Positions 1,020 through 57,526 of a stretch of 64,000 nucleotides of DNA are shown in pieces. The stretch lies in the NCBI GenBank assembly GCA_002311645.1, contig DBYW01000035.1, positions 26,306 through 90,305 on the forward strand, read 5' to 3'. How positions within the stretch are numbered: the stretch's first letter is position 1; each line of letters starts with the position of its first letter. Origin of the DNA: Bacteroidales bacterium UBA1176. GTDB lineage: Bacteria; Bacteroidota; Bacteroidia; Bacteroidales; WCHB1-69. The translations under genes were made by a program, and so were the position numbers. Under the pieces are notes generated by a model, which had not been told where the DNA came from, made no database searches, and was given only the letters and a program-made list of their open reading frames with translations.

Positions 1020-2522
<1,503 letters not shown>

Positions 2523-2571
2523 TATGAAAGTTGTTTAATATCGTTATGAAAAGAGTTGTTTGATTTTACGA

Positions 2572-3693
2572 TTAGAATGACGGGCACTTGAGATCCTTGA
2601 TGGCCTTGCGTTTCTTGGGGCAAGGCAGGAGCAGTTGGAGGGAGACCTCGTGGCTGCCACCGGTAGTGGCGCTGGCCAGTCTGCTGATAGTCAAATCATA
2701 GGAATACGCGATCTTGAACATGTTGTATTCAAGCCCGAACATGAAAATAAGAGCATCGGTGTTAAACGCCTTGGAGATTTGCATTTGTGGGATACCAAGG
2801 GTGTCTCTCACGATGGTGCCATTTTCGTCACGCACAAAATCGTTGTACTTGTATATGAGTCCATGACGGAACCACACACCGAGAGTGAAAGGATAGAATT
2901 TCATATAGAGGCCCTCGTTGAAATAATTGAAGCCCAGTTGGTGTTCGAAGATGAAATTGGGGCTGATGGAGATATCGCCGAAGGAGGTCTCTTTCTTGCT
3001 CTTGCGCTTAAGGTCGAAGTTTGCACCCACGTGGGCGGTGAATTTCAACATGTCATAGAACTTGCCGTCGGCATTGCCGGTGAGGAAGCTATAGGGGGTT
3101 GAGGACGACGAGAGGCTGAGCGTTGCGATGTGCTTGGCTGCGAAGCCAAAGTACACATGCGGGGTATAGCCCAAGAATCCAAAGGAAAAGTCAAGCGTGT
3201 TAATCTGATTGATGTAGTTCCCGATATTCTCGTTGGTCGTATACACGAAACCATATCTTGGGTCGATCATGTCGCCGAAGGTGAGTTTTGTCCAGTCGAG
3301 CGATTTGTTTTGGAATGCGGCTTGCAGGGCGAAACGCATGTTGAATTTCTTGGACACTTTGACCTTGAAGGAGTACATCAGGCTTGCGTTGTAGGTGTTG
3401 AGAATGCCACCTTCGCCCGCACGGTCACCCCAGAACTGCACGCCGATACCGCCATAGATTTTGTCGAAATGCTCGTCGTATGAAGCGGCGTAAGTCAGAA
3501 ATGTGCCCGGCATTGACGGCCATTGGTCGCGGAAATTGAAAGCGAGACGAGGACATATATTCGTGCCAGCCATGGCGGGGTTGAGGAAGAGCGGATTGGC
3601 GTAGAACTGCGAAAACATGGGGTCTTGCGCCTGAACCCGCGCTGTGGACAATCCCAGCAGGGCAACCAATAGTATGAGGATTCTTTTCTGCAT
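2572..3693 (-). CDS. PorP/SprF-family T9SS outer-membrane protein
   Basis: 373 aa. A signal peptide is followed by QDPMFSQFYANPLFLNPAMAG, the hallmark N-terminus of PorP/SprF proteins. The rest is beta-rich with a C-terminal aromatic residue. Confidence 0.75.
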   Translation of the reverse strand: MQKRILILLVALLGLSTARVQAQDPMFSQFYANPLFLNPAMAGTNICPRLAFNFRDQWPSMPGTFLTYAASYDEHFDKIYGGIGVQFWGDRAGEGGILNTYNASLMYSFKVKVSKKFNMRFALQAAFQNKSLDWTKLTFGDMIDPRYGFVYTTNENIGNYINQINTLDFSFGFLGYTPHVYFGFAAKHIATLSLSSSSTPYSFLTGNADGKFYDMLKFTAHVGANFDLKRKSKKETSFGDISISPNFIFEHQLGFNYFNEGLYMKFYPFTLGVWFRHGLIYKYNDFVRDENGTIVRDTLGIPQMQISKAFNTDALIFMFGLEYNMFKIAYSYDLTISRLASATTGGSHEVSLQLLLPCPKKRKAIKDLKCPSF

Positions 3694-3716
3694 AGCGTAC
3701 TGTGTTTTATAGCGGG

Positions 3717-3724
3717 CAAAAATA
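3717..3724 (-). promoter_or_regulatory. -7 promoter element (TATTTTTG on minus strand) for the porP/sprF-like gene and gldJ
   Basis: The minus strand reads TGTATTTTTGCCCGC, 23 nt upstream of ATG 3693. Confidence 0.6.
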
Positions 3725-3737
3725 CAAAAATATTTAT

Positions 3738-3745
3738 TATGTTTG
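3738..3745 (+). promoter_or_regulatory. -7 promoter element TATGTTTG, candidate for porU
   Basis: Matches TAnnTTTG, 93 nt upstream of ATG 3839. Confidence 0.4.
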
Positions 3746-3838
3746 CAACCCTAATTTTTATAATTACGAGCACGGCAATAATCACAACGGAAAAACGTTT
3801 GGAAAATTGCACACGTGCATTTTTTAAAACAACGACAA

Positions 3839-6800
3839 ATGACGAATAAATCTTGGGCATACTGCTGCATTTTTTTTGCATTCATTCTGCAAGTATCTCA
3901 TATTCAAGGACAAAGAATCGAGAAAAAAGTGGTTCTTTCTTGGGGTGACAACATTGTCCGAACCATTTCCGAAGACGAGACACGCGAATTCCTCCATTTT
4001 GACGGAGCTGTCTATCCCCTCTCCTTTCCCACCTTGCCCTCCTATTACGAACAAATTCCGATCGCACAATTCTACGACAAGTATGACATCACGGTCTCCA
4101 ACGTCGAGTATGCGGCAATGAGCGCGAGTGACGCGGCGCTCGTGCCCGCCAACTATCACAGCCGCACTCTTGACGTACAAGCTCACTCCGCACATGCGCG
4201 CACATCCACGTACCTGATGCTGTCGTTTATCCCCATTGTGGAGGTCGGCGACGGCCAATACCGGCGGGTCGTTTCGGCAACCATAACGTTGGAAGGCAAA
4301 ACAGCCGCAAGCGGAACAACCTCTCACCACGACAGCAAAAGCCACGCCACGCAGTCTGTGCTCGCATCCGGGCAATGGTACAATTTCGCCGTAGAGAAGA
4401 CAGGCATCTACAAAGTCACTTACGAAGACCTTGTCGCAATGGGCATGCCCACGCCCATCTCATCGTCGCAGATAGCGTTGTTCGGCAATGGCGGCAAGAT
4501 GCTGCCGGAGGCTAACGCCACCCCGCGAACCGATGACCTGTTGGAACTGCCCATCACCATCGTGGACGGCAACGACGGCACGATAAACGCAGGCGACTAC
4601 TTCATCTTTTACGGCCAGTCGCCGCATTCCTGGACCTATCAACCCGACTTGCACCAGTTCTCCCACACCACCAACCTTTACTCTGATGTCTCGTGGTATT
4701 TTGTCACCTCCACGCCGGGCGTGGGATCAAAAAAACGCGTGGAAAACAGCAACGATGGGGCCTTGACCCCCACTGTCACTGTGAGCAGATACACGCATTA
4801 CGATTTTTACGAGACAGACAGCCACAATTTCGGCGAATCGGGCAAAGAGTGGTTTGGGGATGTTTTCGATGCCACCACGGAGCGCAGCTACACATTTTCC
4901 GTGCCAGGGTATGAGTCCGTGCCATCGCGGATTTCCGTGGCCGGGGCCTGCGCCTCGAGTGCACACTCCTCCATGAGCATAACCGTCAACGGCACCAGCG
5001 CGGGGAGTCTGCACTTCCCCTCCATCAGCGGCAACATTATTGCCACCATGAGCCGTAATGATTTCACCTTCACGCCAAGTTCCTCAACCCTAAACGTAAC
5101 ATTGAGCTACAGTAAGCCGACCACCTCCTCCGCAGCTTACCTCGACTGGATTGAGATTGAGATTCCATGCCGGCTGACGATGCATTCGGCGCAGTTTCCA
5201 TTCTGCAACACCAGCACCGTGGGTGCCGGCAGCGTCACGCGATTCAACATTGCCAACGCGAACGGAAACACTGTGGTTTGGGATGTTACGGACCCTTCGC
5301 GCACCACGCGCCAGGTGCTCACGCAAGACAACGGCCAATACGGATTCACCGTCCGCACAGACTCCCTGCGCCACTTCTATGCCTTCAACGGCACATCCTA
5401 CCTCAGTGTGACACGCGGCGGTGCCGTCGAGAACCAGAACCTGCATGCCACGGGCAATGTGGACATGGTGATTGTCACCCATTCCAAATTTCTCGCACAA
5501 GCCAACGAATTAGCCAAGTTCCGTCGCGAAAACGACGGCCTGTCCGTCCATGTGGCCACTATCCAGCAGGTATACAACGAATTTTCCAGCGGCTCGCAGG
5601 ATCCCATCGCCATCCGCGACTATATGAAGATGATCTACGACCGCAGCAACAAGCAATACCCCAAATACTTATTGTTGGTGGGCCGGCCTTGTTACGACTA
5701 TCGGGGCAGGGTCAGCGGCACCGAGATTTTCGTGCCAAACTATCAAGGGCACTCCGACGGCAGCACCATTTCCGAGATCAGTTTCTACGCCAATGACGAC
5801 GCTTTCGGCCTACTCGACGACGAGGAGGGAAACTCCACCTACGGACTTTACGACATCTCCATTGGCCGTTTCCCGTGCAGCACGGTCTCACAAGCCCGAA
5901 ACGCCGTGGAAAAGAGCATCAACTACACACAGCACAAGAGTTTAGTGAGTGAAAACGCCACGCAGATTTCCAATTTCGGAGACTGGCGCAACATGATGGC
6001 TTTCGTGGCCGATGACGAAGAGTACAACGACTTCCTTTCCAATGCGGACAATTTCTCGACTATTGTGAAAAATACCAACCCCAACATCAACTTCGACAAA
6101 ATCTACTTGGATGCCTTCCAGCAAATTTCCAATGCAGGCGGGCAGCGTTACCCCGATGTCACGGCAGCCATCAACAACCGCATGAACCGTGGTTCGCTGT
6201 TTTTCACCTACATCGGGCACAGCGGCAAAGACGGCTGGGCTGCCGAGCGCATTATCGAGAACTCCGACATCAACCGCTGGAACAACAAATACAACTTGCC
6301 GGCGATGTTGACGTTGTCTTGCACATTCGGTTTCTACGACCGGCCTGTGCTTTCGCCTGCGGACATGGTGCTGTTCAGCGGGATCGGCGGCGTGAGCGCC
6401 ATCATCACGGCCACACGCGAGGCATGGTCGTCGCCCAACAACGCCTACGGACGCCACATCTTCAACACAATGTTCTCCACCACGGACGGGCACTACCCAA
6501 CCATCGGCGACATAGAGCGACGCGCCAAGAACTCATACGGCGGCAATTCCACCTCGTTGGCCATGTTCGTACTTTTAGGGGATCCCTCCATGCCATTGGC
6601 CATCCCCCAATATCGCATCGTCACCGACTCTATCAACCACAAAGCGGTCGGAGAGCAACAAGACACTATACGCGCACTCTCCCTGATGAGCGTCAGTGGA
6701 CGTGTTGTCGACGAGAACGGCCAGACCCTCACGAATTTCAACGGCTCGGTGTACCCCTCCGTCTACGACAAGGCCGTCACCGTGACGACTCTATCCAACG

Positions 6801-7687
6801 ACCCCAGTAGTCCACCATTCGACTTCCAGCAACAAAAAAGCATCCTCTTCAAGGGCAACAACAGCGTGAAAGACGGTCGTTTCAGCTTCTCCTTTTATGT
6901 GCCCAAGGACATTGACTACGACTACGGCGCGGGCAAAATCAGCTACTATGCATGCAGTCAGAACCAAGATGGCGCGGGTGCATTTACGGAATTCATCATC
7001 GGCGGCACCGACACCAACGGCGTGGACGACAAAGAGGGGCCCACCATCGAGCTCTATCTCAACGACGAACAGTTTGTCAACGGCGGTATCGTAAATCCCG
7101 ACCCCACTCTTATCGTCAAGGTGCATGACAACTTCGGCATCAACACCACGGGCAACGGCATCGGACACGACCTCACGGCCATCCTCGACAACGCCTCCGA
7201 ATCGCAAATCGTGCTCAACGACTATTTCCAGAACGACAAGGACAGTTCCAATTCCGGCACGGCACGCTATAGTCTCAACGACCTTGCCGTCGGCAAACAC
7301 TCCCTGCTGGTCCGCGCCTGGGATATCAACAATAACCCTTCGGAAAGCACCCTCGAGTTCGAGGTTGTTTCCGACACAAAGCTGACACTCAGCCATGTGC
7401 TCAACTACCCCAACCCCTTTACCACGCACACCGACTTCTTCTTCGAGCACAACCAAAACGGCGGGCTTTTCGATATCCAGGTACAGATTTACACCATCTC
7501 GGGCAAACTCGTCAAAACCATCACGACTTCACAGTATCTGGAGGGCAACCGCAGCATGGCCATCCCCTGGGACGGCCTCGACGACTATGGCGACAAGATT
7601 GGCAAGGGTGTCTACATGTACAAGTTGCGCGTCCGAAACAGCGAAAATGCAACAGCCGAAGTTGTGGAGAAGCTGGTGATTTTGTAA
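3839..7687 (+). CDS. porU: T9SS C-terminal-signal peptidase PorU (C25 gingipain-like)
   Basis: ATG at 3839; the track ORF begins at an upstream GTG at 3815. 1282 aa. His and Cys blocks YIGHSGKDGW and LTLSCTFG are present. It has its own C-terminal CTD (LNYPNPF...GVYMYKLRV) and is followed by porV. Confidence 0.85.
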   Translation: MTNKSWAYCCIFFAFILQVSHIQGQRIEKKVVLSWGDNIVRTISEDETREFLHFDGAVYPLSFPTLPSYYEQIPIAQFYDKYDITVSNVEYAAMSASDAALVPANYHSRTLDVQAHSAHARTSTYLMLSFIPIVEVGDGQYRRVVSATITLEGKTAASGTTSHHDSKSHATQSVLASGQWYNFAVEKTGIYKVTYEDLVAMGMPTPISSSQIALFGNGGKMLPEANATPRTDDLLELPITIVDGNDGTINAGDYFIFYGQSPHSWTYQPDLHQFSHTTNLYSDVSWYFVTSTPGVGSKKRVENSNDGALTPTVTVSRYTHYDFYETDSHNFGESGKEWFGDVFDATTERSYTFSVPGYESVPSRISVAGACASSAHSSMSITVNGTSAGSLHFPSISGNIIATMSRNDFTFTPSSSTLNVTLSYSKPTTSSAAYLDWIEIEIPCRLTMHSAQFPFCNTSTVGAGSVTRFNIANANGNTVVWDVTDPSRTTRQVLTQDNGQYGFTVRTDSLRHFYAFNGTSYLSVTRGGAVENQNLHATGNVDMVIVTHSKFLAQANELAKFRRENDGLSVHVATIQQVYNEFSSGSQDPIAIRDYMKMIYDRSNKQYPKYLLLVGRPCYDYRGRVSGTEIFVPNYQGHSDGSTISEISFYANDDAFGLLDDEEGNSTYGLYDISIGRFPCSTVSQARNAVEKSINYTQHKSLVSENATQISNFGDWRNMMAFVADDEEYNDFLSNADNFSTIVKNTNPNINFDKIYLDAFQQISNAGGQRYPDVTAAINNRMNRGSLFFTYIGHSGKDGWAAERIIENSDINRWNNKYNLPAMLTLSCTFGFYDRPVLSPADMVLFSGIGGVSAIITATREAWSSPNNAYGRHIFNTMFSTTDGHYPTIGDIERRAKNSYGGNSTSLAMFVLLGDPSMPLAIPQYRIVTDSINHKAVGEQQDTIRALSLMSVSGRVVDENGQTLTNFNGSVYPSVYDKAVTVTTLSNDPSSPPFDFQQQKSILFKGNNSVKDGRFSFSFYVPKDIDYDYGAGKISYYACSQNQDGAGAFTEFIIGGTDTNGVDDKEGPTIELYLNDEQFVNGGIVNPDPTLIVKVHDNFGINTTGNGIGHDLTAILDNASESQIVLNDYFQNDKDSSNSGTARYSLNDLAVGKHSLLVRAWDINNNPSESTLEFEVVSDTKLTLSHVLNYPNPFTTHTDFFFEHNQNGGLFDIQVQIYTISGKLVKTITTSQYLEGNRSMAIPWDGLDDYGDKIGKGVYMYKLRVRNSENATAEVVEKLVIL

Positions 7688-7813
7688 AACCGACGCATAG
7701 GTCGCCTATATAGATCATTTTTTTGAAAAAAATTTTTTCTGTATAAAAATAAAGTTAGAAATCACACGTTACCATCTTTTGTGTTAAAGAAAAGAGAAAC
7801 GTACATCATCGAC

Positions 7814-9088
7814 ATGAAAAAGAAAGTTTTCCTCCCAGCACTGATCGTGCTATTCACTATCTCACAGCAACTTAATGCTCAATCCATTAATCCGAGCCAG
7901 CTTGGCGGCAAGGAATTGAACACCATCACCACGGCAGTGCCATTCCTCAATATTGCGCCCGACTCGCGCGCTGGCGGCATGGGCGACATGGGCTGCGCCA
8001 CCTCCGCCGACATCAACTCGCAGGCATACAACCCCTCCAAATACGTCTTCAACAAGAACACCTTCGGTGTCAGCGTCTCCTACAGCCCTTGGCTGCGCAA
8101 TTTAGTCAACGACATCAACTTAGCCTATCTCAGCTCCTACTGGCGCATTACAGAAATGGATGCCATCGCCTTTTCGCTGCGTTATTTCTCGTTAGGTGAC
8201 ATCCAGTTCACCGACGACCAGGGAAATATGATTTCCGAGCAGAATCCCAACGAGTTCGCTCTCGACTTCACCTACTCACGCAAGTTGGTGGACCATTTTT
8301 CGATCGCGTTGACACCCCGTTTCATTTATTCCAACCTCACAGCCGGCCAATACGTAGCGGGTGAGGAGACCAATGCAGGTCTTGCAGGCGCTGCCGACCT
8401 TTCCTTCTTCTACGAGCAGGATTTCAAAGCGAAAAACCTGGAAAGCAGCACATTGCGTGCAGGTTTATGTATTTCCAACATGGGTAACAAGATGTCCTAC
8501 TCTTCGGGAACGCTTCGCCGTGACTTCCTGCCCACAAACTTGCGCCTCGGTTTAGGCTACGAAATGGGCTTCGACAGCTACAACAAGCTGGCCATCACAG
8601 GCGAAGTCAACAAGTTGTTAGTACCGACAAACCCCGTGTACGCCACCGACTCCATCACGGGACGCATCTTATACGACGAATATAACAACCCGATCATCCT
8701 GTCGGGCAAGGATCCGGACGTCTCCGTGCCACAGGGCATGATCCAATCCTTTTACGACGCCCCGGGCATCGGACAGAACGGTGCCACCGGCAGCGTCTTC
8801 CGCGAAGAAATGGCCGAAATTGCATGGGCGTTGGGTGCGGAGTACAGCTATCGTGACCTCTTCTTTGTGAGACTCGGATATTTCCACGAGAGCAAATACA
8901 AAGGCAACCGCCAGTTCCTCACCATTGGCGCAGGCATCAAATACAACGTCTTCAACATCGACGTGGCCTATTTGTTCACCACCAACGGACAGAAGCACCC
9001 ATTATCCAACACGCTGCGCTTCACCCTCTCCTTCGATTTCACATCCTTCAACAAGGACGAGATCAAACAACAAGGCCGTCTCCGCTAA
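7814..9088 (+). CDS. porV: T9SS outer-membrane shuttle/channel protein PorV (LptO)
   Basis: ATG at 7814 gives the signal peptide MKKKVFLPALIVLFTISQQLNAQ. The motif TAVPFLNIAPDSRAGGMGD is present. 424 aa, barrel-like. Confidence 0.85.
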   Translation: MKKKVFLPALIVLFTISQQLNAQSINPSQLGGKELNTITTAVPFLNIAPDSRAGGMGDMGCATSADINSQAYNPSKYVFNKNTFGVSVSYSPWLRNLVNDINLAYLSSYWRITEMDAIAFSLRYFSLGDIQFTDDQGNMISEQNPNEFALDFTYSRKLVDHFSIALTPRFIYSNLTAGQYVAGEETNAGLAGAADLSFFYEQDFKAKNLESSTLRAGLCISNMGNKMSYSSGTLRRDFLPTNLRLGLGYEMGFDSYNKLAITGEVNKLLVPTNPVYATDSITGRILYDEYNNPIILSGKDPDVSVPQGMIQSFYDAPGIGQNGATGSVFREEMAEIAWALGAEYSYRDLFFVRLGYFHESKYKGNRQFLTIGAGIKYNVFNIDVAYLFTTNGQKHPLSNTLRFTLSFDFTSFNKDEIKQQGRLR

Positions 9089-23924: not shown

Positions 23925-26732
23925 ATGAAAAAGCTCTTTCTTATCCTCAGTATTGTCCTCACGGCAATCTTTGCTTTCGGCCAGGACGTAAAACTGAACG
24001 AAAGCATCAAGAACGACCCGCGTGTCCGCATCGGCAAGTTGGACAATGGCCTGACCTACTACATTCGCCAAAACGCCCAACCCAAGAAAGTTGTGGAATT
24101 CCGCTTGGCCGTGAACGCCGGATCCAACCAGGAGAACGACAACCAGCGCGGCCTGGCTCACTTCACCGAGCACATGGCCTTCAACGGCATTGAAGGAATG
24201 CCTGGCAACACTATGATTGACAAGCTGCAAAGCCTCGGTGTGGTTTTTGGTGCTGACCTCAACGCCTACACCTCCTTTGACGAGACAGTCTATATGATCC
24301 CCATGCCGCTCGACGATCCCAAGAACCTCGACCTTGGACTTCAAATCCTGCGCGGCTGGGCCCACGGTCTGCTCTACGACCACAAGGAAATCGACGCTGA
24401 AAGAGGCGTCATCACCGAAGAGTACCGTCTCGGCCTCGGCGCCGACGACCGCATGCGCAAAGAATACTGGCCCATCCTCATGAAAGACTCCCGCTATGCC
24501 GACCGCATGCCCATCGGCCTGCTGGACATCATACAAAACTTCGACTACCAAGTCATCAAAGATTTCTACAACGACTGGTATCGCCCCGATCTGCAAGCCG
24601 TCATCGTGGTAGGCGACATCAACGCCGACGAGGTTGAGGGCAAAATCAAGAAACTTTTCAGCGACATTCCTGCCGTGCAGAACCCCCGCGTCAAGGAGAG
24701 ATACCAAATCGCGGGCAACAAGGAACCGCTCGTGGCCGTCTGCACTGACAAGGAGGCTGCCGGCAACAGTGTGATGCTCATCCGCAAATTTCCCCATTTC
24801 GCCATCCAATCCAACGGCGACTTCCGCAAACAACTCATCATCGACCTCTACAATGAAATGTACGAGGCACGTCTTGACGAGATGACCCAAGACACCAAAT
24901 GTCCGTTCATCGGCGCTTCTGCCGGTTACTCCCAATTCATCGGCCTCACCGACATGTACGGTTCCCAAGCCGCCAGCAAGGAGAACAAAATTCTTGAGAG
25001 CATTGAAATCCTGATGCGCGAAGACTACCGCGTACTGCAACACGGCTTCCTCCAAACCGAACTTGACCGTGCAAAAGTCTCCCTGCTCGAACGTTACGAA
25101 CGCGCCTCCAACGAAGTCGACAAGACCGAATCTTCCCGCTACGCATCCGAATACGTCAGCAATTTCCTTTATGGCGACCCTATCCCGGGCGCAAAGCGTG
25201 AATACACCCTCGCCAAGAAACTGCTCGACGGCATCAAACTTGCCGAAGTCAACGGCATGGCAAAAAGATGGATCACGCCTGAAAATCTCGTCGTGATTGT
25301 CACCGCCCCCGAAAAAGAAGGTGTGTCCGTGCCCGCCAAAGAGGAGATTCTCAAAGTCATCAAGAACGAGAACTTGAAGAATGTCCAACCTTACGTCGAC
25401 ACCTACAAAGAGCAAGAGATTGTGGAAAGAAGTTCCCTCAAGCCAGGTTCCATTCTCAGAACCGAAGAAATCCCCGCCATCAAGGCTCAAAAGGTGATCC
25501 TCTCCAACGGCATCGAGGTTATCCTCAAAAAGACCGATTACAAGAACGACGAGATTCTCTTCACCGCCACCAGCAAGGGTGGGCTGAGCCTTTGCAAGGT
25601 GGAAGATCTCCCCTCCGCTTACTTTGCCACCAACATCATTGACCGCAGCGGCATTGCCGACATCGACTACAACTCCCTGCTCAAAAAACTCAAGACCAAG
25701 CAAGCAGGTGTCACCCCCGACATCGGATCCATGACCGAGAGCCTCGATGGTTCCTCCACCCCGAAAGACCTTGAATTCTTTTTCCAGTACCTCAACGCCT
25801 TCTTCACAAACCCACGCGCCGACAAAAACGCCTGCGAATTGGTGATCAACGAGACTAAGGAACAGATCAAGATGCTCCAAGCCAACGTGATGTACCACTT
25901 CATCGGTGCCCTTCTCGAAAAAGCGACCCAAAACGACCCCTACAAGGTAAACCCGATCTCCATGACCCCCGAATTCCTCGACAAAGTCGACTTCGACAAG
26001 GCCGTCAAAATCTACAAGGAACGCTTCGCCAACCCTGCCGACTTCACCTACGTCTTCGTAGGCAACTTCGATGAAAAAATGATGAACGAACTGCTCTGCG
26101 TCTACCTCGGCTCCATGAACACCAGCAAGGGAAAAGAGAATTTCAAGGATGTTTTTAAAGGACCCGCCACCGGAATCCAAAAAGCCGAAGTAAAATACGG
26201 ACAAGAAGATCAAGGTTGGATGGGCCTCTATTTCGAGCAGCCTTACGACTACAACGCCAAGAACAACATGACCGTCACCGTGCTCGGCGAAGTGGTGAAC
26301 CAATACCTGCTTGAGATTGTCCGCGAAAAGATGGGTGACGTTTACTCCCCGATGTCCCAGATGGGCTATGAGAAACTTCCGACCCCCACATACACATTGC
26401 TGATCATGTTGAGTTGCAGTCCCGAGAAAACAGACAAACTCGCCAATGTCTGCATCGACATCCTCAAGAACATCGGCAAGAAGGGCTGCGACAAGAAGAG
26501 ACTCGCCAAAATCAAAAAGCAACTGATTGCCACCCGCGAAAAGAATATCCAAACCAACCGTTTCTGGCTCAACTACATCAACGGGAAGGTGCTTAACAAC
26601 GACGAAATGAACGCCGTCAACGAATATGCAGACATGGTGAACTCCGTGACGAGTAAAGACATTGTCAACTTCATGAAGAAATATTTCAAATACGACAATT
26701 ACGTGCGTGTTGACCTGAAACCTGAGAAATAA
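23925..26732 (+). CDS. M16-family (pitrilysin/insulinase-like) zinc peptidase, two-module
   Basis: 935 aa with a signal peptide and the inverted zinc motif HFTEH ([13 protein letters not shown]). Confidence 0.85.
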
Positions 26733-32220: not shown

Positions 32221-33201
32221 ATGAAAAAAAATATTTATCTTCTTTTGGTGTTTGCCCTGGCACTTCTGGTTGGCTGCAAGCAGAAATCCACACCCGCATT
32301 CAAGGCGGACAATTTCTCCACCGGCAAGGCGGGCGAGATGATTTTGGCCATTGACACAAGCTATTGGACTCCGGCGGCGCGCACGCGCATCTATCAGGTG
32401 CTGCAGCAACCACAACCGGCCATCAACCAGGTGGAACCGCTATTCGACATCATCCAATGCAGCAACAAGGACTTTTTGGCATCCTTCACGCGCCATCGCA
32501 ACATTGTGCAATTCGACTACAACCCTAATTATTCCCAGAATTTCCTCGACTTGAAACGCGACCCGTACACCAAGCCCCAAATTCAAGCGGTGATTCGTGG
32601 CAACAACCAGGACTCCCTGCTTGCAATCTTCCTGGAACATCAAGACGAGATCGTGGAGGCCCTGTACGAAAACGACATCGCGCGGCTGCAAAATGCACAC
32701 CGCAAGCTCAACAACCCCAACGTGGAGAAGAAAATCAAGGAAAAATTCGGGCTCACCATGACTATCCCTGACGGCTATTTCGTAGGCCGCGAAGAGGATG
32801 ATTTCCTCTGGCTCTGTTTCCGCACCCCGAAAAACGATCGTTTTATCATGATTTACAAGTCACCCGCCTACGAACTGACCACTGAGAACATCGTTTACGA
32901 GCGCAATCGCATCACCAAGGCCTATATCCAAGGTGCGGTGCAGGGAGCCTACCCCATCGTGGCCGACCTTGATGGATTCCCGTTGATGCACGAATACAAG
33001 CTGCATTATCACAACGGCATTGAGCTCCGAGGATTGTGGGCGTCCGTGCGCGACAAGATGGGCGGCCCCTTCTACAGCTATACCATGCTCTCCCCCGACC
33101 AATCATCCTGCATCACGGTGGACGGCTTTGTCTATGCCCCGCAAGAGAAAAAACGCGACTACCTGCGCGAGGTGGAATCCATCGTGAAATCCATCAACTG
33201 A
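32221..33201 (+). CDS. Lipoprotein, DUF4837-like (tentative family call)
   Basis: 326 aa with lipobox LLVGC. GEMILAID..W......I..VLQQPQPAINQVEPLFDI...NKDF...RHRNIV resembles the DUF4837 pattern as I remember it. Confidence 0.55.
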   Translation: MKKNIYLLLVFALALLVGCKQKSTPAFKADNFSTGKAGEMILAIDTSYWTPAARTRIYQVLQQPQPAINQVEPLFDIIQCSNKDFLASFTRHRNIVQFDYNPNYSQNFLDLKRDPYTKPQIQAVIRGNNQDSLLAIFLEHQDEIVEALYENDIARLQNAHRKLNNPNVEKKIKEKFGLTMTIPDGYFVGREEDDFLWLCFRTPKNDRFIMIYKSPAYELTTENIVYERNRITKAYIQGAVQGAYPIVADLDGFPLMHEYKLHYHNGIELRGLWASVRDKMGGPFYSYTMLSPDQSSCITVDGFVYAPQEKKRDYLREVESIVKSIN

Positions 33202-33254
33202 TTTTTTTCTATTCCTTGTAACACTTTTTGGAAAAAGTGCATCTATAGGTTACC

Positions 33255-33809
33255 ATGCACGGTGACAATGAAACGAAAAAGCTCATCGAGGGATGCCTGA
33301 ACAACGATAGGCAGTCGCAGCGCGCGCTATACGACAAATATGCGCCGCAGATGTACCCCGTATGCATCCGCTACGCGGGCAACGAGACCGAAGCAGAGGA
33401 CATCCTCGTAGATGCTTTTCTCAACGTTTTCACCCACCTGCAGGAGCTGAAGAAGCACAGTTCATTGAAGAGTTGGATCTATGCCACTGTCGTGCGGACA
33501 TCGCTCATGCATCTCCGCGCAAAACGGCAGCATCCCTTCATGGAGTCTTTCGACGACATGGACGATAGCTACAACTGCCCCGCACCTGATGGGGAAGCAG
33601 CGATTGTCGCGAAGATGGAAGCCCAGCAAGCGATGAAAATCATCGCCCGATTGCCGGAAACACAACGCACCATCTTCAACATGTACGCTATCGACGGCTT
33701 CGGCTATAAGGAGATCGCGGAGACGCTGGAAATGAACGAAAGCTCCGTCAGGGTGTATTATCAACGCGCAAGGCATTGGATTCTATCTGTAATGAACAAA
33801 CAGAAATAA
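33255..33809 (+). CDS. ECF (sigma-70 group IV) RNA polymerase sigma factor
   Basis: 184 aa. Region 2 (YAPQMYPVCIRYAGNETEAEDILVDAFLNVF) and region 4 (LPETQRTIFNMYAIDGFGYKEIAETLEMNESSVRVYYQRAR) are both present. Confidence 0.85.
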   Translation: MHGDNETKKLIEGCLNNDRQSQRALYDKYAPQMYPVCIRYAGNETEAEDILVDAFLNVFTHLQELKKHSSLKSWIYATVVRTSLMHLRAKRQHPFMESFDDMDDSYNCPAPDGEAAIVAKMEAQQAMKIIARLPETQRTIFNMYAIDGFGYKEIAETLEMNESSVRVYYQRARHWILSVMNKQK

Positions 33810-33816
33810 CTGGGAA

Positions 33817-34764
33817 ATGAAAGAGATCAAGGACATATTGGAAAACTATACGCAACAGCCGCCCGCCAGTGGCTGGGAACGGCTCAGCAGCCAGTTGGAC
33901 GCGCTCGCCCCCATGGGCGGCGAGTCTGCTGCGACGTCTTCCACCGGCGCATCGGCAGCCGGCACGGCAGCTAAAGGAGCGGCTTTCTCCGTCTCCAAGG
34001 CACTGCTCGTCGCAGCCGCAGGCCTGCTGACCACCGCCGCTGTAGTCACTGCCGTAATAATTCATAATGAAAAATCCGATATACAAAGCACAGAATTGCC
34101 CAACGGACAAACCGCTGACAACTCCACGATCGTTTTGACGGACAGCACCATCACAACCACACCCGAGGAGGAAAGATCCTTGGCTGTCCAAGACAACACT
34201 CCATCCGAAGAACCCGCTCCTGCTGCTCCATCCGACAATGCGCCTGTTGCCAACCCTGTCACGACACCCATTGTTGACAACACTCCTTCAACACCTGCTG
34301 CCATCCCTGCCACCACTTCTCCCAAGATGTCCGTATCGCCAGCTAAGACGCCCACGCCCACCCTTTCGCTCCAGCGTCCGAACGTCACCCCCACCCTCTC
34401 ACACATCGCCCTTCCACAGCAGTCCACTATACTCCACCAACAACAAGAAGACCCTGTGGTCCAAAGCATGGATCCTGACGAGATGGATTGGAGTGCACCC
34501 GTAAAAATCGAGATTCCGAACGTCTTCACCCCTAACGGCGATGGATTCAACGACCAATTTGTCATCCAAGGCATCGAAAATTGTGACAAACACGAACTGA
34601 TTGTCCGTAATCGTGGCGGAAACGTCGTCTTCCGCAGCAATTCGTATGAAAACAATTGGAACGGCGACAACTGTCCCGACGGAACATACACCTACCAATT
34701 CCTGTACAGCAGCCACGGCATCTCACAGGAGATGAAAGGCAATGTGATGATAATTCGGAAATAG
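33817..34764 (+). CDS. Single-pass membrane protein: anti-sigma-like N-terminus, Thr/Pro-rich linker, T9SS type-B C-terminal sorting domain
   Basis: Starts 7 nt after the sigma stop. 315 aa. The N-terminal ~58 aa are hydrophilic, followed by one helix ALLVAAAGLLTTAAVVTAVII and a low-complexity linker. The C-terminus reads IPNVFTPNGDGFNDQFVI...NWNGD..DGTYTYQF...GNVMIIRK. Confidence 0.7.
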   Translation: MKEIKDILENYTQQPPASGWERLSSQLDALAPMGGESAATSSTGASAAGTAAKGAAFSVSKALLVAAAGLLTTAAVVTAVIIHNEKSDIQSTELPNGQTADNSTIVLTDSTITTTPEEERSLAVQDNTPSEEPAPAAPSDNAPVANPVTTPIVDNTPSTPAAIPATTSPKMSVSPAKTPTPTLSLQRPNVTPTLSHIALPQQSTILHQQQEDPVVQSMDPDEMDWSAPVKIEIPNVFTPNGDGFNDQFVIQGIENCDKHELIVRNRGGNVVFRSNSYENNWNGDNCPDGTYTYQFLYSSHGISQEMKGNVMIIRK

Positions 34765-55846: not shown

Positions 55847-57526
55847 ATGATGAAACGTCTGATATTGTTATGTATCCTTTTCGGACTGGCCATTTCCCTC
55901 TTCGGCCAAAACCCAACACCGACCTGTTATCGGGTCTATCTGAGTGACAAAAATAACTCGCCATACTCCATAAACAATCCTTTGGAGTATCTTTCGCAAC
56001 GGGCCATTGACAAGCGCACCCGGTTCAACATTCTGGTTACGGAACAGGATTTTCCCATCAATCCCCAGTATAAGCAACAGATTTTGGCTCTAGACCCGCA
56101 GATGAGGCCGTTGGCCGTGTCCAAATGGATGAACACGTTCACGGTCTATTGTCCCGACAGTACGATTGTTCCTCAAATATTGAACCTGCCCTTCGTGGAT
56201 TCTGTGATGGCAGTGGCCGCGTACCATTTAAAGGATTCCCTTGTGGCAGAACCTGTACCGGAGAATCCGACGCCGATGGTTTACAGCACACCGACATTCA
56301 GCAAAGATACGCTGAACTATGGTCCCGGTTTTGCACAGATTGCCTTGCACAACGGTCATCTGTTACATGCGGAAGGTTTTCACGGTGAAGGAATGCTCAT
56401 TGCTGTCATAGACTGTGGTTTTGGATTGATTGAGGATATTCCTTTTTTCCAGGAGATTGTAGATGACGGACGTTTTTTGGGAAAGTATTCATTGTTGCCT
56501 AATTTGGATTCGCTATCAGCAGGAGAAGTTGTTGAAGAACCTGATCATGGTACAGCTGTTACATCCGCGATGGCGGCAAATATTCCTGGAGAATTGATTG
56601 GGACAGCCCCCGCCTCCTCTTACGTTTTCATAATATCGGAAGTCGCAGGAACAGAGCAACCTATTGAAGAGGATTTTTGGGCCAATGGCGCGGAAATTGC
56701 TGACAGTATTGGAGCAGATATTGTCAATTCCTCGTTGATCTATCACAGTTTTCCAGATTTCCCGCAAGTCAGTATTGGCTACGAGCAGATGGATGGCGTA
56801 TGGAGTATAGCCTCCAGAGCCGCCACCATTTTAGGACAAAAGGGCGTGGTAGTTTGTGTAAGCGCCGGAAATACAGGAGATTATATAGGACATCCTGCCG
56901 ATGCCTTTGATGTTCTTTGTGTAGGAGCCACCTCTGATAGTGTTATTCTCAGTATTTCTTCACACGGTCCAACTTATGACGGACGCGTGAAGCCTGATGT
57001 CGTGGCCGAAGGAGAGAGTGTATATTGCTATAGTATGGCCCCTCCTTATTATCATTACGCTAGTTATTGGCTTAGACCTTTGGCAGGTACCAGCATGGCA
57101 AGTCCCATCATAGCTGGTCTCAGTGCCTGTCTTTGGCAAGCAATGCCATGCTATACTTCTTCCCAAATCATGCAGATCATTCGCGAGAGCGGCCATCTCT
57201 ACAATAACCCTAATCCGGAGTATGGCTACGGCATTCCCGATTTCTACAGGGCGTACACCAGCCACGTCGGCATTAATGACTACAAACCACAGAATCTCAG
57301 TATCTATCCTAACCCCGTCACCGACCGTTTGAATATCCTCAACCCCGAAACCAACATTCAAGCTGTTTCCGTCTATAACGCCGCTGGTCAGCTCGTCCTG
57401 CAGACCACCGTCCCCAACTCCCCAATTCTTGAAGTCAATGTAGCTGGCTTGCCCAATGGATTCTACATGGGAATGGCAACGCTTGATAATCACCAAATTG
57501 CCACATTTAAATTTATGAAACAATAA
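55847..57526 (+). CDS. S8 (subtilisin-family) serine peptidase with T9SS type-A C-terminal sorting domain
   Basis: 559 aa with a signal peptide. Catalytic blocks VIDCGF (Asp), HGTAVTS (His) and GTSMASP (Ser). The C-terminus reads LSIYPNPVTDRLNI...GFYMGMATL...FKFMKQ. Confidence 0.85.
   Translation: MMKRLILLCILFGLAISLFGQNPTPTCYRVYLSDKNNSPYSINNPLEYLSQRAIDKRTRFNILVTEQDFPINPQYKQQILALDPQMRPLAVSKWMNTFTVYCPDSTIVPQILNLPFVDSVMAVAAYHLKDSLVAEPVPENPTPMVYSTPTFSKDTLNYGPGFAQIALHNGHLLHAEGFHGEGMLIAVIDCGFGLIEDIPFFQEIVDDGRFLGKYSLLPNLDSLSAGEVVEEPDHGTAVTSAMAANIPGELIGTAPASSYVFIISEVAGTEQPIEEDFWANGAEIADSIGADIVNSSLIYHSFPDFPQVSIGYEQMDGVWSIASRAATILGQKGVVVCVSAGNTGDYIGHPADAFDVLCVGATSDSVILSISSHGPTYDGRVKPDVVAEGESVYCYSMAPPYYHYASYWLRPLAGTSMASPIIAGLSACLWQAMPCYTSSQIMQIIRESGHLYNNPNPEYGYGIPDFYRAYTSHVGINDYKPQNLSIYPNPVTDRLNILNPETNIQAVSVYNAAGQLVLQTTVPNSPILEVNVAGLPNGFYMGMATLDNHQIATFKFMKQ

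Follow-up and report, generated by a model that had tools for sequence, protein, structure and literature searches.

Why would the gene for an extracytoplasmic function (ECF) sigma factor be followed, after seven nucleotides, by a gene for a predicted single-pass membrane protein whose last domain is a secretion signal? The question is raised by two genes in a 64,000-nt stretch of the genome of Bacteroidales bacterium UBA1176 (positions 26,306 to 90,305 of contig DBYW01000035.1, assembly GCA_002311645.1; the whole stretch is called the window below). The first, at 33255..33809, encodes a sigma factor of 184 residues; the second, at 33817..34764 on the same forward strand, encodes a partner of 315 residues that ends in a T9SS (type IX secretion system) C-terminal domain (CTD) of type B. 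The answer favored here, with a probability of roughly 55%, is that the partner is an anti-sigma factor of the Dma type that is anchored to the outer membrane in trans, by means of the T9SS and a β-barrel of the PorP/SprF family.

The Sigma Factor and Its Partner

The product of 33255..33809 is an ECF (group 4) sigma-70 factor. It matches Sigma70_r2 (43.2 bits) and Sigma70_r4_2 (59.4 bits) in Pfam, has no regions besides 2 and 4, and scores 90 bits with TIGR02937, the ECF model, against a curated cut-off of 42.9. Its stop codon is separated from the start of the partner gene by the seven nucleotides CTGGGAA, and both reading frames and the gap lie exactly where the initial annotation had placed them. 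The window contains one sigma gene, one CHU_C protein and one PorP/SprF gene, and the nearest genome, that of the uncultured rumen Bacteroidales metagenome-assembled genome (MAG) RGIG8237, encodes a sigma factor that is 95% identical.

The C-terminus of the partner (residues 231-315; 34507..34761) is a genuine type-B T9SS domain, as first annotated. The Pfam family CHU_C (PF13585) covers residues 231-312 over the full model (1-86 of 86) with 71.9 bits (cut-off 27; E 4.9e-20), and TIGR04131 scores 45 bits (cut-off 35). The AlphaFold2 model of the partner, computed from a 56-sequence alignment, has a β-sandwich at residues 230-315 with a confidence score (pLDDT) of about 90. A Foldseek search of the PDB ranks the CTD of NucA in the T9SS translocon complex second (8glk_D, target-normalized TM-score 0.64) and PorZ third.

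Ahead of this domain the chain is built of four further parts. The N-terminal motif, residues 1-31 (MKEIKDILENYTQQPPASGWERLSSQLDALA; 33817..33909), is presumed to bind the sigma factor and is modeled as two short helices (2-9 and 19-30); throughout the family W20 never varies and P15 and L27 hardly do, and the consensus is M..IKDIL..Y...PS..CWE.LS.RLD. A low-complexity cytoplasmic segment rich in Ala, Gly and Ser, read from the sequence, follows at residues 32-61 (33910..33999), leading to a transmembrane helix at residues 62-82 (ALLVAAAGLLTTAAVVTAVII; 34000..34062) with a Kyte-Doolittle hydropathy of 2.4, against a mean of 2.2 across 55 homologs. The 15 residues before the helix carry on average 1.96 Lys and Arg and 0.02 Asp and Glu in the family, and the 15 residues after it 1.16 and 1.87, respectively; since positive charge precedes the helix and net negative charge follows it, the N-terminus is predicted to be cytoplasmic and the C-terminus to lie outside. 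Residues 83-195 (34063..34401) form a predicted disordered tether rich in Thr, Pro, Ser and Ala (the linker is 14% T, 11.5% P, 11% S and 10% A), for which no secondary structure is predicted; most of the model between residues 34 and 198 is disordered, with pLDDT below 50. All four parts described in the initial annotation are thus present, and a fifth can be added, a moderately conserved segment in front of the CTD (residues 196-230; 34402..34506) with the sequence QQEDPVVQ, a family consensus Q-x-DPV-x-QN and short modeled helices at 204-216 (pLDDT 61-74). For secretion by a type-B CTD, the last 100 residues are reportedly insufficient (PMC10202324).

Conservation is unevenly distributed along the chain. 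Mean pairwise identity in the family is highest in the CTD (62%), followed by the N-terminal motif (46%), the Ala/Gly/Ser segment (33%) and the linker (18%). The distance from helix to CTD nevertheless stays within 136-165 residues (median 149), despite the unconserved linker sequence. Homologs of 295-320 residues, down to about 30% identity, all share the layout of the window protein. A shorter subfamily (257-279 residues; loci L178, L180, L181, L183, L184, L187, L189-L191, L193, L195, L196, L198, L202, L203, L206, L211 and L229) has no Ala/Gly/Ser stretch, and passes from the motif through a basic segment directly into the transmembrane helix.

How common is this architecture, and how tightly is it tied to a sigma factor? 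An exhaustive HMMER search of 1.84 billion cluster representatives found 232 clusters (50% identity) that share it at E≤1e-30; the best 150 of these matches are nearly all full-length and mostly 260-380 residues long, with four shorter fragments. As the CHU_C superfamily has 87,348 representatives in the same set, the sigma-partner architecture is a small but real CHU_C subclass. Synteny was scanned across species, each represented by a single genome, and the query was the DUF4837 protein encoded directly upstream of the sigma gene. The pairing of a sigma gene with a helix-plus-type-B-CTD protein, to which the initial annotation had drawn attention, recurs in 67 of the 79 loci obtained, always in the order DUF4837, sigma, partner; four further loci end at a contig edge and eight have no sigma gene. 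All 79 come from uncultured Bacteroidales or Lentimicrobiaceae, mostly from the herbivore gut. Three diverged metagenomic homologs on long contigs likewise lie behind a DUF4837 lipoprotein gene and an ECF sigma gene, with differing outer flanks, and in most relatives the two genes of the pair overlap or directly adjoin at the sigma stop codon.

Adjacency by chance can be rejected, given the 67 triads in 79 species loci and the conserved downstream partner in related sigma loci (see below). It can also be rejected that CHU_C proteins are commonly sigma-linked: only two of 80 arbitrary CHU_C loci are coupled to a sigma gene, both with the layout of transmembrane helix, linker and CTD, and one of them (L049) from a separate lineage. 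The remaining loci have no sigma gene upstream, and nearly all of them encode proteins that either are long or combine Ig-like passengers with a classical signal peptide.

Could the partner be an ordinary small T9SS cargo, with its first ~82 residues cleaved off as a long signal peptide and its expression merely controlled by the sigma factor? Its CTD is full-length and high-scoring, as that explanation would have it, and cleavage after the hydrophobic helix was judged by inspection and hydropathy only. By those means, however, the N-terminus does not have the form of a cleavable Sec signal peptide: the helix is preceded by 61 hydrophilic residues, the N-terminal sequence is kept in the family and the distribution of charge indicates N-in. 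The chain contains no passenger domain, the AlphaFold2 model having only the disordered linker in its place, whereas short ordinary CHU_C proteins have the signal peptides and passengers just mentioned. Together with the close spacing to the sigma gene in relatives, and with the homology of the 31 conserved N-terminal residues to the sigma-binding end of Dma-type anti-sigma factors, these features make the cargo explanation very improbable.

Kinship With the Dma Anti-Sigma Factors

Where does the N-terminal motif come from? No family in Pfam or NCBIfam matches the first 230 residues of the partner. A zinc-binding class I anti-sigma domain (zf-HC2/RskA-type) has no Pfam or NCBIfam match at E values up to 1, the H-x3-C-x2-C motif is absent from residues 1-61, Pfam finds no FecR or RseA domain in the partner, and the partner-family profile has no match among PDB sequences. 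Homology was found instead to the motif of the Dma anti-sigma factors, which were first described in 2024. They are defined by an N-terminal sigma-binding domain, a transmembrane helix, a long disordered tether and a C-terminal β-barrel, and by their position beside an ECF21 sigma factor (PMC10927553, PMC13088901, PMC13114119). Dma1 of Bacteroides thetaiotaomicron (BT_4721) carries the annotation OMP_b-brl_2, crosses both membranes, binds the sigma factor Das1 (BT_4720) via its N-terminus and is proteolysed, and C-terminal fragments of it have been observed (PMC10927553). Its ortholog Reo, known from B. fragilis and Phocaeicola vulgatus, uses its cytoplasmic N-terminus to bind EcfO (PMC10927553, PMC13088901, PMC13114119).

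A 38-residue hidden Markov model (HMM) of the motif, built from barrel-type partners only, matches residues 2-31 of the window partner at E 1.2e-3. This is its sole significant match among 322 six-frame open reading frames of the window (next E 6.9), and members of the partner family are matched at up to E 2e-7. Aligned to each other with hhalign, the CHU_C-family motif and the barrel-type motif give a probability of 96% and E 3.3e-9. A search with barrel-type partners as queries recovered proteins of three Bacteroides species, B. ovatus, B. finegoldii and B. faecium. The last of these has a complete genome, in which the gene order is NigD, ECF sigma, OMP_b-brl_2 protein, the same as reported for BT_4719 (NigD2), BT_4720 (Das1) and BT_4721 (Dma1). 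The N-termini of the B. faecium Dma1 ortholog (MNKLKEKLADYSEPTPASGWEQLEKEL) and the window partner (MKEIKDILENYTQQPPASGWERLSSQL) are identical at 12 of 27 positions, including PASGWE, and the window sigma factor shares 28% identity with the Das1-type sigma of B. faecium over their full length (E 4e-26). The link to Dma1 (BT_4721; WP_008766767.1) rests on synteny and on its orthologs in B. faecium, B. ovatus and B. finegoldii.

Because its N-terminal motif is homologous to that of Dma and Reo, and because the coupling to a sigma gene is tight in relatives, the partner is very probably an anti-sigma factor, as the initial annotation had supposed on the grounds of gene order and topology. A very short two-helix cytoplasmic segment is plausibly enough to hold an ECF sigma factor, by analogy of size only with CnrY and NepR, two examples of short (class II) anti-sigma domains. 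Judged by its sequence, the partner has four of the five defining Dma features: an ECF-adjacent gene in Bacteroidota, the homologous N-terminus, the single transmembrane helix and the disordered tether. The fifth, the β-barrel, is found neither by Pfam nor with an HMM of the relatives' barrels. Since the C-terminus is CHU_C and has no barrel, the partner is a Dma variant and not a strict member. The two systems are alike in that the partner gene directly follows an ECF sigma gene and the C-terminal module appears directed to the outer membrane, and they differ in that the 8-stranded OMP_b-brl_2 barrel has given way to a type-B T9SS domain, whose anchoring would require both the T9SS and a barrel on another protein.

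A conserved lipoprotein gene adjoins both systems, from different families: NigD in Dma and DUF4837 in the window. The DUF4837 gene (32221..33201, forward strand; Pfam DUF4837, 252.9 bits) is the directly upstream neighbor of the sigma gene, and its product has a lipoprotein-type signal with an invariant C19. A sequence search of the PDB gave no solved relative of DUF4837, and a literature search found nothing on it. The gene sits where NigD2 sits beside das1-dma1 in Bacteroides, yet it is unrelated to NigD.

Two side observations concern nomenclature and a further sigma lineage. NCBI and UniRef label Bacteroides Dma1-type proteins (P0256, P0332, P0374, P0402) as 'PorT family protein'; by this annotation the Dma barrel is classed with a T9SS component, although Bacteroides is considered a T9SS-less genus. 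In Porphyromonas gulae (L245:3298-6607), a PG0214-type sigma gene is followed by genes for a single-pass protein, a lipoprotein-like protein and two proteins with outer-membrane-protein-like C-termini. This too is a cluster of sigma and outer-membrane-protein genes, but of another system. The lead that such sigma factors (NF058625 sigma_PG0214) belong here was rejected, as the downstream single-pass protein of P. gulae has a different N-terminus.

Probable Exchange of C-Terminal Modules

If the N-terminal half of the partner is Dma-like, how did a secretion signal come to stand at its other end? A scan of species genomes by sigma alignment, in which 80 loci were analyzed, places the window pair in a wider clade that includes Bacteroidales, Rikenellaceae/Alistipes, Cyclobacteriaceae, Saprospiraceae, Crocinitomicaceae and others. 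Nearly every related sigma gene (27-95% identity; about 78 have such a partner) is followed by a gene for a single-pass protein, overlapping or a few bases away. These partners open with ..LF..KL...E..PS...W..IE..L, have a transmembrane helix near residue 40-70 and then a variable end. According to Pfam, 14 of 48 clade partners end in CHU_C and 12 in an OMP_b-brl_2 barrel (8 of which also match OMP_b-brl), three to four have PKD before a CHU_C-like end, and the remainder are short. The tether of barrel-type relatives is about 215 residues long, and that of the window family is shorter (median 149).

In a neighbor-joining tree of the sigma factors, which carries no support values and gives only an indicative count of exchanges, CHU_C-partnered sigmas occur in at least four or five places among barrel-partnered ones: the window family, L096 beside L114 and L116, L097 beside L121, the PKD+CHU_C group beside L149, and L049 with L158, L159 and L164. 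Such interleaving suggests repeated exchange of the two modules, that is, that barrel and T9SS domain have been swapped several times among the partners of related sigma factors. As the barrel is interchangeable with the CTD in relatives, anchoring to the outer membrane would be the property they share.

In the initial annotation the partner looked like an anti-sigma factor with a secretion tag in the place of its sensor. The idea of a replaced extracytoplasmic module is essentially borne out, given that relatives carry a barrel, or PKD with a CTD, in the same place. The idea that this module was a periplasmic sensor is not, since placement in the Dma family makes it an outer-membrane anchor.

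The short clade partners point in the same direction. In Cyclobacteriaceae and relatives, partners of 157-248 residues have behind them in nearly all cases, at -4 to +11 nt, the gene for a protein of ~335 residues with a signal peptide and an outer-membrane-protein-like end (...NAFSFGITF); in one case OMP_b-brl_2 is weakly matched, at E 0.005. This neighbor may be the Dma barrel split off into its own gene. Loci of this kind, with genes from about position 5200, are L098, L106, L110, L118-L120, L124-L136, L147, L148 and L153. A different neighbor is found in a Flavobacteriales MAG (L162:3983-6092), where a clade sigma and a 185-residue single-pass partner with neither CTD nor barrel stand immediately ahead of a PorP_SprF gene that scores 208 bits in Pfam and matches the PorP of the window at E 1.3e-69, the sole sigma-linked PorP/SprF gene among ~170 loci. 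We propose that these anti-sigma factors invariably have their C-terminal end aimed at an outer-membrane barrel, which may be fused, encoded next door or reached via the T9SS domain.

A set of rumen Bacteroidales partners (541-549 residues; L099-L101, L104, L107 and L108, at ~3860-6190) shows another arrangement, in which the N-terminal motif is tandemly doubled and the chain continues with PKD_6 and a CTD-like end that no CTD model scores significantly.

From Secretion Signal to a Proposed Outer-Membrane Anchor

Is the machinery that such an anchor would require present? The window has a T9SS core neighborhood at 1020..9088, with a GldJ-like gene (1020-2522, reverse strand; Pfam FGE-sulfatase), a gene for a PorP/SprF outer-membrane β-barrel (2572..3693, reverse strand; Pfam PorP_SprF, 171.3 bits), porU (3815-7687, forward strand; Peptidase_C25 and Por_Secre_tail) and porV (7781-9088, forward strand; Pfam PorV), and the organism therefore has a T9SS. 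An ordinary T9SS cargo is encoded in the same window, an S8 subtilase with a type-A CTD (55847-57526; Por_Secre_tail, 41.9 bits). Type-B CTDs bind barrels of the PorP/SprF family (PMC9143113), and the type-B literature (PMC9143113, PMC12618676) makes the product of 2572..3693 a candidate docking partner of the CTD.

This gene, the only one of its family in the window, lies in the core locus and not beside the partner, as initially annotated. The separation holds across relatives, with no PorP/SprF gene within ~4-6 kb in ~90 sigma-coupled loci; among ordinary CHU_C cargo loci, taken as a positive control (L002-L080), 14 of ~78 have one directly downstream. The missing neighbor is no objection to docking, because type-B substrates whose genes have no shuttle gene beside them rely on an orphan shuttle (PMC12618676).

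How could a protein of this kind control a sigma factor? Sigma binding, topology, PorP docking, proteolysis and autoregulation are here what we infer from the known systems. By homology to Dma1 and Reo, the two-helix motif of ~30 residues would hold the sigma factor at the inner membrane, and the single transmembrane helix is predicted to put the remainder outside the cytoplasm. The Thr/Pro/Ser tether of ~150 residues, with its predicted disorder and constrained length, would span the periplasm, and the CTD would dock on the T9SS, likeliest on an orphan or core PorP/SprF barrel, so that the barrel would be provided in trans and not in cis as in Dma. The docked partner would then bridge both membranes, as Dma1 does. 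Were anchoring to fail, through damage to the outer membrane or through loss or saturation of the T9SS or PorP, proteolysis of the tether and the transmembrane region, as proposed for Dma1, would release the sigma factor. As anchoring would depend on the T9SS, sigma activity would report T9SS status.

The freed sigma factor would transcribe its own operon and a further regulon. A candidate ECF-type promoter lies 12 nt upstream of the sigma start codon (33217..33243, forward strand), with TGTAAC, 17 nt and CATC. In orthologous intergenic regions between DUF4837 and sigma genes, TGTAAC and a following C(G/A)(T/A)C box are kept at the same place in divergent surroundings, and in the 64-kb window the motif has no other correctly oriented intergenic occurrence. 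A generic scan for sigma-70 promoters and terminators finds no sigma-70-like site at these positions. The candidate promoter is probably autoregulatory.

Does the T9SS release the sigma factor by cutting its partner? In the initial annotation, capture and cleavage of the CTD by a PorU-type enzyme were the site-1 event, and the regulon would track T9SS throughput. The CTD is authentic, a T9SS with PorU and PorV is present, and RseA-type anti-sigma factors are known to be activated by a site-1 cut. The C-terminal fragments of Dma1 could be read in the same way (PMC10927553). However, the type-B protein PG1035 is neither cleaved nor modified with A-LPS, and needs neither PorU nor PorV to form its complex with PorP and PorE (PMC9143113, PMC10202324). 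Moreover, the PorU sortase works at the cell surface on type-A CTDs, and no ECF-type promoter motif precedes the T9SS genes of the window. Cleavage of the CTD as the trigger is therefore improbable.

Another alternative is that the CTD stays in the periplasm and binds a T9SS component or other partner there, its occupancy setting the stability of the anti-sigma factor. This is where a peculiarity of the sigma-coupled CTDs matters. In an alignment of 82 ordinary cargo domains and 63 sigma-coupled ones, the latter keep nearly all canonical positions: PN.FTPNGDG.ND.F, G268, W281, G283, G289, Y291, Y293, G308 and R314. A hairpin that reads aromatic-N-R-W-G in cargo, however, reads RNRGG in the window (34603-34617, residues 263-267, VRNRG). 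The position of the hairpin W is aromatic in 76 of 82 cargo domains against one of 63 sigma-coupled ones, which have A, S, G or N instead, and the difference recurs in each of the independent lineages with sigma-coupled domains. At the aromatic position ahead of it, 67 of 82 cargo domains have F, Y or W, and 50 of the 63 sigma-coupled ones have R, K or H. A pattern of this kind argues against a decaying or generic domain and suggests that the CTD still docks but is handled differently.

The hairpin pattern thus keeps periplasmic docking alive. Loss of the hairpin aromatics in every sigma-coupled lineage, with the rest of the signature kept, fits docking with altered export; all five conserved type-B motifs are required for secretion of a reporter (PMC12618676), and the altered hairpin may or may not belong to them. 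The tether to the inner membrane would in any case make complete export impossible, and a precedent exists in the CTD of PorA, which binds PorY from the periplasmic side (PMC12152298). Against this stand the interchange of the CTD with an outer-membrane barrel in related partners, and the conserved tether length of ~150 residues, which is sufficient to reach the outer membrane. Purely periplasmic docking is accordingly rather unlikely, though it is the most credible of the competing explanations, and anchoring in trans at the outer membrane is preferred.

A further variant goes beyond anchoring. The GldLM/PorLM motor is driven by the proton-motive force and also moves type-B cargo such as SprB. 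Were the CTD threaded via the T9SS and PorP to the surface with the N-terminus still in the inner membrane, strain exerted by this motor on the tether could free the sigma factor. We regard this as a long shot, about as improbable as cleavage by PorU. If true, a single polypeptide would extend through the secretion apparatus, from the cytoplasm as far as the cell surface, the trigger would be mechanical and not a chemical ligand, and type IX secretion and gliding would have a built-in gauge of force or throughput.

Several points weigh against outer-membrane anchoring in trans. The signal peptide of T9SS cargo is normally cleaved off and the cargo set free in the periplasm; the partner is instead predicted to be tethered to the inner membrane. 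Sigma-coupled CTDs, lacking the aromatic pair of the hairpin, may not be competent export signals. The want of a promoter match upstream of the T9SS genes of the window means that nothing yet indicates the T9SS itself as the regulon. NCBIfam places the window sigma neither within nor outside ECF21, the group beside which Dma proteins are found: this sigma, the Das1-type one of B. faecium and further sigmas of the clade exceed the cut-off for the ECF superfamily model alone, and TIGR02985 and NF058625 are among the sub-cut-off matches of the same proteins, so that the models do not separate ECF groups. The sigma tree, as said, is indicative in its count of exchanges, and all hosts of the partner family are uncultured.

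How does the pair compare with other links between the outer membrane and transcription? A literature search, which left most subscription journals outside its scope, surfaced no anti-sigma factor with a T9SS sorting domain, and only the work on PorA and SigP came up. T9SS is unmentioned in the Dma papers PMC10927553 and PMC13088901, and anti-sigma factors are unmentioned in the T9SS effector review PMC10202324. In the PorA/PorY-PorX/SigP system of Porphyromonas gingivalis, a near-passengerless T9SS CTD likewise serves as a signal into an ECF sigma factor, and PorA remains active when tethered to the inner membrane (PMC7712824, PMC12152298). PorA, however, is a protein of its own with a CTD of type A, loses its signal peptide by cleavage and acts as a positive ligand of a histidine kinase, whereas in the window a type-B CTD is fused to the putative anti-sigma factor. 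SprB-SprF, PG1035-PorP-PorE and the Fjoh_1677 orphans (PMC9143113, PMC12618676) involve the same CTD family with nearly all signature positions. Unlike such cargo, the partner has no cleavable signal peptide, passenger or adjacent porP/sprF, is predicted to be anchored in the inner membrane, and belongs to a family with the hairpin (R/K)-N-R-x-G instead of aromatic-N-R-W-G. FecR/FecA and RseA/DegS/RseP (PMC9249621) also use a single-pass anti-sigma factor to link an outer-membrane event to sigma release, probably by sequential proteolysis; in the partner, by contrast, contact with the outer membrane would be made through a secretion signal, and not through a TonB-dependent transducer or unfolded porin peptides.

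The finding bears on two questions about the Dma proteins: what does the outer-membrane module sense, and how is a protein that spans two membranes assembled? The apparently repeated swaps of barrel and T9SS domain argue that attachment to the outer membrane, rather than a particular fold for sensing, is the essential property. In T9SS research, a passengerless type-B CTD protein tethered to the inner membrane would be a natural trapped substrate, and its two-residue difference from exported cargo could be useful to separate docking from translocation and to find the partner of an orphan type-B domain. If anchoring in trans is correct, the pair would provide a second route of feedback from the T9SS to transcription, more direct than that through PorA, PorXY and SigP. 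The partner family is widespread in uncultured Bacteroidales of the herbivore gut, and the architecture of the window pair suggests that gene regulation in its host is wired directly to the secretion machinery.

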